Below, piece after piece: positions 7,183 through 9,618 of a stretch of 64,000 nt of DNA (its first letter is position 1; each line of letters starts with the position of its first letter). The notes under the pieces are model-generated. The model was not told where the DNA came from and ran no database searches. It saw nothing but the letters and a program-made list of their open reading frames with translations. The stretch lies in the NCBI GenBank assembly GCA_018378615.1, contig JAGZXE010000004.1, positions 4,749 to 68,748 on the forward strand, read 5' to 3'. The translations under genes were made by a program, and so were the position numbers. This DNA is from Haemophilus parainfluenzae. Lineage in GTDB: Bacteria > Pseudomonadota > Gammaproteobacteria > Enterobacterales > Pasteurellaceae.

Positions 7183-7977
7183 TTATTTAATAAACATATC
7201 AACTGCGATCGCAACTAATAGCAAGGCAAAGCCTTTTTTCAAGGTTGGGACAGGGAGTTTGGAGGTTGCTGTTGCCCCTAGTTTAGAAGTGAAGAATGAA
7301 GTGCCCGTAATACCAAGCACGGCAGGCAAATAAACATAACCTAGGGAATAATCTGGCATGGCAGGATTACCCCAACCACTCACCATAAAGCTAAACATGC
7401 CTGATAAACCAAGAAGTGCCCCACAGAATGCAGAAGAACCGATGGCTTTTTTCATATCAATCCCGCGGGAATTTAAAAATGGCACGATAAAACCACCACC
7501 GCCAACTCCAGCAGCACTTGATGCCATCCCAATTAAAATACCACCGATAACAGATGCTTGTGTTGTTAAAGGTTTGGTTTTCCCTGTGTTTTTCTTAATA
7601 GAAATCACCATTTTTGCCGCTAAATATACGACTAAACAGGCAAAGATTTTGGCTGATACATCACGATCAAGTTTGCCAATAAACAAACCAGAGATAAAGA
7701 CTGAGATCATCACCATCGGTGCCAATACTTTCACGGCACTCCAGACTATATTACCTAGTTTATGGTGACGCTGTGCAGAAGAAAATCCAGTAATCACAAT
7801 GGTTGCAAATGAAGTCCCTAATGCGGTGGACATCAGCAAGGGTTCAGGTACTCCTACCATCGGCAATAAATAAACCAAGGTTGGAACAATAATTAACCCA
7901 CCACCAATGCCAAATAATCCGGCAAGAAAACCAACAACAGACCCGACCAATAAACAAAGTAGAATAAAAGTGAGCAT
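7183..7977 (-). CDS. TauE/SafE (TSUP) family membrane transporter
   Basis: [13 protein letters not shown] and [10 protein letters not shown] internal repeat; very hydrophobic. Confidence 0.85.
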
Positions 7978-8570
7978 TATTGCCCCCTTGATTTATAAAA
8001 TGAACGTTTTTGATATTTAGAAGAACCATTTTTACGCGCCGCATGATAAGGTTTATTTGTCTCATGCTCTTGCGTATTTTCAAGCAATGTTTTTTCGTTG
8101 CCAAACATCACTTGGGCAAACTCTTTCATCGCCTTGCGATAAACATCTTTCTTAAAGGACACAACCTGACGTACGGGATACCAAAAACTTACCCAACGCC
8201 AACCATCAAATTCCGGTGATTTTGTTGTGTTCATATTAATATTTTTTTCATCCCCCACTAATTGCAACAAAAACCAACGTTGTTTTTGCCCAATACACAC
8301 GGGTTTGCTGTCATAACGCAGCAATCTTTTCGGCAGCTTATAACGCAACCAATGTTTAGACGCGTAAAGCACCTTCACATCTTTGGGTTGCAAACCAACC
8401 TCTTCATATAATTCACGATACATGGCTTGTTCGGCACTTTCATTATCGTTAATTCCACCTTGCGGGAATTGCCACGAATTCTGCCCGTATCGTTTAGCCC
8501 AAAGCACCTGCCCTTTGCGATTACAAATGACAATGCCTACATTTGGACGGTAGCCATCAAAATCGATCAC
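7977..8570 (-). CDS. rppH: RNA pyrophosphohydrolase
   Basis: [10 protein letters not shown] start; Nudix box WQFPQGGI...RELYEEVGL. Confidence 0.97.
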
Positions 8571-8659
8571 TATCGTTCACCTTAAATTTTGTACAAAAAT
8601 AATTTGCAGATTGTTTCATAAATTCGCTTTTTTATCAACCGAATGGGCATATTTACCCT

Positions 8660-9035
8660 ATTGTGGATAACTCTGTGGGTAACACTTGGATAGTCTAAAT
8701 TTAACTGTGTATAAAAATTAAAAACCGCTTTTCACACTTCATTTTTTTCATTTTTGCATAACCTTTAATCAAAAATTTTCCAAAAAAAATGACCGCACTT
8801 TTTCTCATCAAAGTGCGGTCAAAAATTCAGCCATTTTTTAGTTTAAACATTCCTGGCTTGGTGAAGAAATAACAGCTGTGAGTTATTCAATATTTCTGTG
8901 GATAAAATTGTGATTGAGCAAATGGTGACTGTTGCATAACTCTTCTTAGCATTTTACCATAGAGCTTTGAGGAAAAATTTTATCTTTAATTTCATAAAGA
9001 TAACGCTTATTCACAGAAATCATCTTATTCACATT
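8660..9035. promoter_or_regulatory. DnaA-box cluster, DARS2-like element
   Basis: Exact TTATNCACA/TGTGNATAA boxes at 8662, 8706, 8897, 9007 and 9025; degenerate boxes at 8674, 8883 and 8909; lies upstream of rppH. Confidence 0.75.
8790..8821. repeat. Inverted pair of DNA uptake signal sequences (USS)
   Basis: TGACCGCACTTT-TTCTCATC-AAAGTGCGGTCA. Confidence 0.9.
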
Positions 9036-9054
9036 CAAGTAAAAATTTTAGTGG

Positions 9055-9618
9055 TTATTTTTCATCCAAGCCTTTTTTGACTAACGCTAAATAGCGTTCC
9101 CATTCAAAATATTGACCAGGATCGATCTTACGACCAGGGGAAATATCGCAATGCCCAACGATACGATCGAGCGTTATTTTCGGGTAAGCTTGCATAATAT
9201 CTCGTGTTAATGCAGCAAGCACTTGGTATTGCTCCGCTGTAAAAGGTTGTTCATTACTGCCCTCTAGCTCAATCCCAATCGCAAAATCATTACATTTATC
9301 CCGTCCTTCAAAGCAAGAAAGCCCCGCATGCCATGCTCTATCATTGAAACTAACGTACTGTGTCACCTTGCCATCCCGTTCAATTAAACAATGGGCTGAC
9401 ACACGAAATTGATAAATCTCTTCAAAATAGGGATGGATGGTTGGATCGAGTTTTCCTTGGAAAAAATCATCTACATATCCACCACCAAATTGTTCTGGTG
9501 GCAAACTGATGTAATGAATGACGAGTAATGAAATATCCTCTACATTAGGACGTTCATCAAAATGTGGTGAAATTACTTTTCTTGTCTGGCTTAACCAGCC
9601 ATTTTTTATCTTATTCAT
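9055..9618 (-). CDS. ampD: 1,6-anhydro-N-acetylmuramyl-L-alanine amidase
   Basis: [18 protein letters not shown] and [14 protein letters not shown]; divergent from pilA. Confidence 0.96.

Follow-up and report, generated by a model that had tools for sequence, protein, structure and literature searches.

In the window, by which we mean the whole 64,000-nucleotide stretch of Haemophilus parainfluenzae DNA that was analysed, the spacer upstream of rppH probably carries, at positions 8883-9067, a DARS2-type DnaA-reactivating unit that is orthologous to a second unit on the mutH side of the enterobacterial rppH-mutH spacer. This degree of confidence is a joint one that includes the distal history, and the same mechanism with a simpler history would add a modest amount to it. 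Taken alone, the Haemophilus locus is a moderate extension; it would bring DARS-type replication-timing control to Pasteurellaceae, with the exact sites named. The second unit that it exposes in E. coli makes the question of a third DARS directly testable.

DnaA boxes and predicted IHF and Fis sites in the rppH-ampD spacer

The spacer runs from the start of rppH (8570) to the stop of ampD (9055); these and the other gene names in the window are our presumptive assignments from the translations. rppH is the first gene of an rppH-(membrane protein)-lgt-thyA run, the same gene order that flanks DARS2 in E. coli, and the closest named relatives are Haemophilus parainfluenzae records with an RppH identity of 96-98%. 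The initial annotation had listed five exact DnaA boxes here, and all of them are found (TTWTNCACA, at 8662(-), 8706(-), 8897(-), 9007(+) and 9025(+)), as are the TGTGGGTAA at 8674 and the triad TTATTCAAT-ATTTC-TGTGGATAA-AAT-TGTGATTGA at 8883-8917 (Table 1). Over the whole window there is no excess of exact boxes (15 vs 12.2 in shuffles). The 1.8-Mb host assembly (G000) has 314 of them, and only two 400-bp clusters with at least three, one of four boxes on contig C80 and one of five at the window locus, the densest of the assembly. A cluster of five has a genome-wide Poisson expectation of 3e-4, and the clustering at 8660-9035 is not a matter of chance.

Table 1. Features of the rppH-ampD spacer and its borders, in window positions
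Feature	Position	Strand	Remarks
rppH (RNA pyrophosphohydrolase)	7977..8570	-	left border of the spacer; ORF list
Sigma-70-like promoter match	8610..8638	-	points into rppH; 2 matches vs 2.1 by chance
Left double DnaA box	8662..8682	-	3-bp gap; without opposed box I
Extra co-oriented exact box	8706..8714	-	44 bp past left pair
IHF-like match	8766..8779	+	104-105 bp past left pair; mainly in host genus
Inverted pair, terminator-like hairpin	8790..8821	-	3' of ampD; 1 found vs 0.3 expected
Triad box I	8883-8891	+	2 mismatches; 5-bp gap to box II
Triad box II	8897-8905	-	perfect; 3-bp gap to box III
Triad box III	8909-8917	-	2 mismatches
Weak fourth co-oriented box	8931..8939	-	34 bp past box II start; resembles DARS1 box III'
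Predicted IHF site	8989..9002	+	A/T tract, then 13-mer at +93 from box II; host-genus copies degenerate
Two exact DnaA boxes	9007..9033	+	within the IHF-Fis interval; restricted to host genus; may act in feedback
Predicted Fis site	9053..9067	.	63 bp past IHF 13-mer start; overlaps ampD stop codon
ampD	9055..9618	-	right neighbour, reads toward the triad-IHF-Fis unit; ORF list

The triad has the geometry by which a DARS core is defined in the accessible text of PMC6868365 and of PMC4245941 Fig. S10A, that is, boxes I and II head-to-head 5 bp apart and box III co-oriented with II at 3 bp. If box II must be perfect and no more than 4 mismatches are allowed overall, the host assembly has two triads of this 5/3 spacing, in the window and upstream of uvrB; none of the 34 other spacing pairs occurs more than once.

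The initial annotation had named the conservation of this spacing across Pasteurellaceae rppH-upstream regions as a check, and the spacing is indeed conserved. When rppH positions were taken in 150 family genomes and 60 upstream regions were compared (about one per genus plus 7 of the host genus), the triad was present in 41 of the 60, on the same strand and 305-430 bp away. Used as a search pattern, which was picked after inspection of the data and applied to related and hence dependent genomes, it matched in 151/151 family genomes, mostly twice, against 0 for the reversed control. The opposed box I stands at exactly 5 bp with at most 2 mismatches in 33/35 Pasteurellaceae triads, and the +34 box recurs with at most 2 mismatches in 17/33 relatives. 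The annotation's statement that the locus stayed beside rppH holds for those 41 loci and fails for the other 19, which lack a triad there. Eighteen of these 19 genomes were checked at a pattern match elsewhere, and the displaced triads are mostly accompanied by an IHF site, a Fis site and the left pair. IHF was kept at ≤2 mismatches in 16/17 scored (8/8 in one set and 8/9 in the other; L109 and G047 were left out), and Fis at ≤2 mismatches in 7/8 of the 8-locus set. Triad, IHF and Fis sites have in such cases moved jointly away from both rppH and mutH.

Some variants of the locus were also seen. In L107 and L108 (G077 and G150), the entire pair-triad-IHF-Fis locus is found between a corC-like gene and ampD-pilA, away from rppH. 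Several genomes of g15 (all 7), g44, g48 and other genera have a third triad match. In one clade (L013, L017, L021, L022, L027, L043, L055 and L057), conserved GATC sites flank the triad, one overlapping box III and one preceding the +34 box; they are absent from the window locus, and in that clade they suggest Dam/SeqA timing.

IHF and Fis sites, which the initial annotation could not place, now have candidates to the right of the triad, at 8989-9002 and 9053-9067, and the Fis site takes the predicted unit past the end that the annotation had set at 9035. The scan for them was another check that it had named, and both predicted sites are conserved: the IHF consensus is found at +82 or +93 from box II with ≤1 mismatch in 36/44 relatives, against 11% in shuffles, and the Fis consensus 42, 52-53 or 63-65 bp past IHF with ≤1 mismatch in 39/42, against 9.7% in shuffles, at offsets that were permitted after data inspection. 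The offset steps are roughly one helical turn each. An IHF site some 80-110 bp past box II and in helical phase, as in DARS2, is thus present family-wide, and the copy in the window is a degenerate one, with 3 mismatches to WATCAANNNNTTR and 1 to the in vivo ChAP logo of PMC13036160; by the classical consensus it is the weakest among relatives. The window Fis site has 1 mismatch to GNNYANNNNNTRNNC, and the joint IHF+Fis score of 4 mismatches is the worst of 35. Family-wide, IHF and Fis jointly at ≤2 mismatches follow the triad in 31/35 loci and the left pair in 0/33 (shuffles 1.4%), and by the ChAP logo, IHF passes in 35/35 after the triad and in 6/33 after the left pair. The IHF-like match after the left pair occurs in 6/8 same-genus loci, and family-wide it reaches ≤1 mismatch to the classical consensus in 2/33. 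IHF or Fis sites between left pair and triad were considered and rejected for want of a conserved peak; the sequence of that interval barely aligns.

The conserved Fis-like site lies nearer to IHF than in E. coli (42/53/63-65 bp in Pasteurellaceae vs ~77-84 in DARS2), which makes for an asymmetric loop, the Fis arm falling some two turns short of the DnaA arm; the accessible text of PMC11724364 puts the IHF site of E. coli DARS2 about equidistant between DnaA boxes and Fis. The boxes at 9007 and 9025 stand between IHF and Fis, where a feedback role of the box V type is conceivable, without positional conservation: they are not conserved outside the host genus, one same-genus locus lacks both as exact matches, and some DnaA box is found in this interval in 20/35 relatives at variable offsets. 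In E. coli DARS2, the low-affinity boxes that accompany box V overlap the Fis site and serve negative feedback. An equivalent of box V at -119 from the distal box II, frequent in outgroups, was also considered and is not conserved in Pasteurellaceae.

If the locus works as the E. coli model predicts, ADP-DnaA would first occupy the perfect box II, a partner would be recruited head-to-head to box I across the 5-bp gap through a Gln208 contact, and further partners would join head-to-tail on box III. A bend made by IHF would then let Fis contact the DnaA complex through Gln68, after which ADP would leave DnaA and ATP be reloaded, and the same chemistry may be expected in Haemophilus. ATP-DnaA on the 9007 and 9025 boxes might displace IHF or Fis as a form of feedback. 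The left double box would serve as a high-affinity loading or titration site for DnaA and presumably no longer releases ADP because its box I is lost. The cognate proteins are encoded: DnaA of the host assembly keeps the ADP-release residues Gln208, Phe239, Lys243, Arg227 and Leu290 (Arg205 and Arg245 differ from E. coli), and there are Hda, a Fis with Gln68 and two IHF-like subunits, which we take to be alpha and beta. These two are the only PF00216 matches, and an HU gene was not found in this 88%-complete assembly.

The inverted pair at 8790-8821, which we take to be an uptake-sequence (USS) pair, lies inside the cluster, again as first annotated. Transcripts of ampD would traverse the Fis site, the IHF site and the triad before reaching this hairpin, and could modulate IHF binding; tRNA read-through that modulates IHF binding at datA is a parallel (title of PMC10950094). 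A non-coding RNA reading was dropped, since Rfam gave a single chance match on the locus, at 17.6 bits, far under the cut-off of 80.4.

Which module of the enterobacterial spacer the triad matches

The spacing of the E. coli triad and the location of DARS2 given in the initial annotation proved correct against the E. coli sequence and papers. The E. coli core is found 158 bp ahead of rppH, in the same strand orientation and with identical 5-bp and 3-bp gaps, and DARS2 includes core boxes I-III, IBS1-2, FBS2-3 and box V (PMC4245941 and the accessible text of PMC8682772 and PMC11724364). The Haemophilus locus is like it in its rppH-upstream spacer, its strand, its 5/3 triad, the order triad-IHF-Fis, the IHF offset in the same helical series and the encoded cognate DnaA, IHF and Fis. 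It is unlike E. coli DARS2 in that the complete unit is the rppH-distal one, in that its extra boxes lie between IHF and Fis and not right of Fis, and in its ampD neighbour. Among the 41 rppH-linked Pasteurellaceae loci the right neighbour is ampD in 15, mutH in 2 and other genes in 24, so that the rppH side of the DARS2 location is kept and the mutH side in only two. The working triad is probably not the module proximal to rppH: the box-I slot of the left pair has ≤2 mismatches in 1/33 loci, and conserved IHF and Fis sites are lacking after it.

E. coli has a further, second triad on the mutH side of the core, 316 bp to the right. For comparison, the outgroup consisted of 40 loci taken from 22 further families of the order. 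Many of them have two modules in the same orientation, and 22 of these were hand-picked and used together with E. coli; non-Pasteurellaceae rppH loci could be fetched for 27/39 and 40/83 of two samples, from which most reduced genomes were left out. The left pair occupies the rank of the E. coli core in the spacer and the triad comes after it. In the 4 Pasteurellaceae loci with mutH, the triad lies 209-305 from MutH, and outgroup distances are 99-358 for distal and 409-691 for proximal modules. The triad shows the distal traits of a strong box II, a weak box III and a preceding AG, and the left pair, as in cores, has a strong box III. Of 42 Pasteurellaceae Fis sites, 40 come nearer to the distal-unit profile, a likeness of T-rich sites that could in part be convergence, and the commonest IHF-to-Fis spacing of 63-65 is common to Pasteurellaceae and the enterobacterial second unit. 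In two families, 3 outgroup loci also have a spacing of 62-65 behind the proximal core. A profile test assigns 28/35 Pasteurellaceae triads to the distal module; the test is weak, with 19/23 and 17/23 in leave-one-out and only 19/33 pairs called proximal, and it scored the window's own left pair as distal. An assignment on flanks alone was uninformative (20/35).

We consider it rather likely, on these comparisons, that the Pasteurellaceae triad corresponds to the mutH-side second module and not to the E. coli DARS2 core, and the old core seems to survive in this family only as a double box without box I. The left double box would then be the remnant of core boxes II-III after loss of box I. 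It is the only double box of the host assembly with a perfect TTATCCACA and a partner with ≤1 mismatch, and weak boxes at +23 to +45 past the pair recur in relatives. The initial identification as a DARS2 orthologue accordingly stands for the locus, by synteny and DARS geometry, and needs correction for the triad, which maps better to the mutH-side unit. Like the region from the right half of E. coli DARS2 to mutH, the Haemophilus unit has a perfect box II, weak boxes I and III, and an IHF-like and then a T-rich Fis-like site (63 bp past IHF in the window, 64 bp in E. coli), at the same rank; unlike it, the enterobacterial second unit has a weaker box I (TTATCCCAY), places IHF at +105 and has an intact core on its left, 316 bp away. 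Box I carries 2 mismatches in the window; each of the two proven E. coli cores has 1, and the enterobacterial second unit as a rule 3.

A simpler history, the one that the initial annotation had in view, would make the triad directly orthologous to core I-III of E. coli, together with IBS1-2 and FBS2-3, and would have the left pair added within Pasteurellaceae. It would fit the TTATTCA-type box I and the 5-bp spacer, which are close to those of the E. coli core, as well as the IHF offset of +93, near the core's +95, and it gains from the weakness of the profile test. It is nevertheless an improbable one, as it requires that a pair was gained independently at the core position and the distal unit was lost, and it goes against the pair-triad-mutH order and mutH distances, the box II/III strengths with the preceding AG, the core-like strong box III of the left pair, and the type and spacing of the Fis site, all of which fit the distal module.

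A second unit in E. coli and a possible third DARS

The E. coli second unit, consisting of a triad and predicted IHF and Fis sites, spans NC_000913.3 2,969,451-2,969,648. Among enterobacteria, sampled at one locus per genus (n=31), the core is present in 25, the second triad in 23 and the second triad with IHF and Fis in 22 (shuffles 1.5%). Of 43 named enterobacterial loci with the 316-bp spacing, a set with many Enterobacter and Klebsiella, 38 have an IHF-like site at +105 and a Fis-like site 64 bp past it. In the order at large the complete second unit has a patchy distribution, with a good IHF+Fis pair after the distal module in only 5/24 outgroup loci. Coding constraint from ygdT, which overlaps the second triad in E. 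coli, is an unlikely explanation, as the position of the ygdT start codon varies among enterobacteria.

The DARS2 fragment that served for EMSA and footprints is 455 bp long (PMC4245941). Judged from supplement coordinates and the primer, this fragment ends at 2,969,566, 2 bp short of the predicted IHF site of the second unit. Without the core this fragment was inactive (PMC4245941), though the IHF and Fis sites of the second unit are missing from it as well. Boxes IV-VI, the "right half" of E. coli DARS2, have been reported as dispensable. In PMC11317965 Table 1, the double box of the second triad is the one given for the locus's strongest DnaA ChIP peak, and PMC13036160 describes an additional IHF peak "just outside DARS2"; with the IHF logo of that paper, the sole perfect match in the E. 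coli spacer plus 150 bp is the predicted site of the second unit. By IHF GeF-seq, no DARS2 signal whatever is reported in the accessible text of PMC8407004. ChIP supplements of PMC3064808 and PMC3333857 give binding regions or flags for mutH that are too coarse for site assignment. The published DARS2 alignment covers nine species, with Pasteurellaceae absent from the accessible Fig. S10A text of PMC4245941, and no description of the unit in this family came up in text searches. In the literature searched, the second unit is not described as a unit; an earlier mention is possible in figures or in the DARS-like survey of Fujimitsu 2009.

A Fis-dependent third DARS, "yet to be unidentified", was postulated by Kasho 2014 (PMC4245941), an idea that we found in only one further replication paper. 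Since the 455-bp fragment stops short of its IHF and Fis sites and core-only deletion leaves it intact, the second unit is a candidate for this third DARS. In one such deletion, ALO4254, boxes I-III only are replaced (accessible text of PMC4585315), and this is the DARS2 allele of the Delta4 strain (accessible text of PMC11331064), which therefore belongs to the core-only deletions that leave the second unit in place. Our tentative proposal, read from sequence comparison, is that the rppH-mutH spacer might hold two tandem DARS units, that the mutH-side one may be the third DARS of Kasho 2014, and that Pasteurellaceae may have kept this unit while the core decayed; the unit would have been missed because the 455-bp clone stops 2 bp before its IHF site. 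If it is active, the core-only strains (ALO4254; Delta2ATP, Delta4) would still have extrinsic DnaA reactivation, and claims and models resting on such strains would be affected. The unit is thus a specific 200-bp E. coli K-12 candidate for the third DARS. Should it act in some other way, the conserved but "dispensable" right half of DARS2 would still have gained a structure, and the extra IHF peak a likely place.

Other functions and related loci in the host assembly

The main functional rival to DnaA reactivation is a datA-like sink, in which co-oriented double boxes and an IHF bend would titrate DnaA or stimulate DnaA-ATP hydrolysis and so replace the datA that is absent from its usual place. 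It owes this place to the host assembly having no box cluster downstream of orn-tRNA-Gly, and it also draws on QueG not being found with an E. coli query (in an assembly 88% complete), on the left pair as the best double box of the genome, followed in the host genus by an IHF-like site, and on the short distance of 31-92 kb between locus and mnmG in several complete genomes. The locus shares with E. coli datA a double box, an IHF site ~93 bp from a box, a non-coding setting and a position away from oriC. At datA the chemistry is opposite, there is neither a 5-bp head-to-head pair nor a Fis site, and IHF lies between co-oriented essential boxes, with no Fis requirement (accessible text of PMC11724364 and PMC4585315). 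Here Fis follows a conserved IHF site that stands outside the box array, the pair-to-triad interval has no conserved IHF, box I is held at exactly 5 bp (the 33/35 above), and the locus is not the one beside orn-glyVXY, all of which makes a datA-like role an unlikely reading. On contig C149:4100-5300, orn and two tRNA-Gly genes keep the synteny seen in E. coli, and the start of the downstream ORF looks truncated.

There is only a slim chance that the sites regulate flanking transcription (of the rppH-lgt-thyA run, or of mutH in enterobacteria) and not the nucleotide state of DnaA. The double box does lie 24-44 bp upstream of the rppH promoter-like match, in E. coli, promoters under DnaA control are marked by double boxes (PMC11317965), and the enterobacterial Fis-like site is just ahead of mutH; against this, triad, IHF, Fis and usually the pair travel together beside many neighbours, gene ends included, and mutH of the host is on a separate contig, with upstream DNA that is coding-like and has no exact DnaA box.

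As the densest exact-box cluster of the assembly, the window locus could also be taken for oriC, an alternative that the initial annotation had raised and that is now ruled out, with a negligible probability. The 4-box cluster on C80 (C80:1400-1750) lies between mioC and mnmG with GATC-rich, AT-rich 13-mer-like repeats and is the origin candidate; the window locus has no GATC at all between 8566 and 9119, and its counterparts lie 31-708 kb from mnmG in 23 genomes. Nor was a fixed distance from oriC seen in the 22 genomes available as one main contig, where by hand calculation it ranges over ~1-36% of the chromosome.

The separate host triad lies at the uvrB (DARS1) position, at contig C85:1034. 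The window triad is like E. coli DARS1 in its geometry, its perfect box II and a weak extra box past box III, and unlike it in its IHF and Fis sites, as DARS1 needs neither (accessible text of PMC6868365). Triads of this second type (C85:1034-1170 and L112, L113, L115, L121, L122 and L124-L126), several of them at the uvrB/DARS1 position, have a near-perfect IHF match at +106 to +108 in 8/9, the match of the host copy being perfect, and no Fis site at a matching offset. E. coli DARS1 itself has a 2-mismatch IHF match at +107, though it is described as IHF-independent. In g48, second-type matches occur in both directions. The host uvrB (C85:1290-3170) lacks ~52 residues in frame (E. coli 58-109, with the Walker A region cut), which is either an assembly error or a damaged gene, and it is directly followed at C85:3461-4707 by ORFs that we take, from their translations, to be Hcp-like and TssB-like (type VI secretion).
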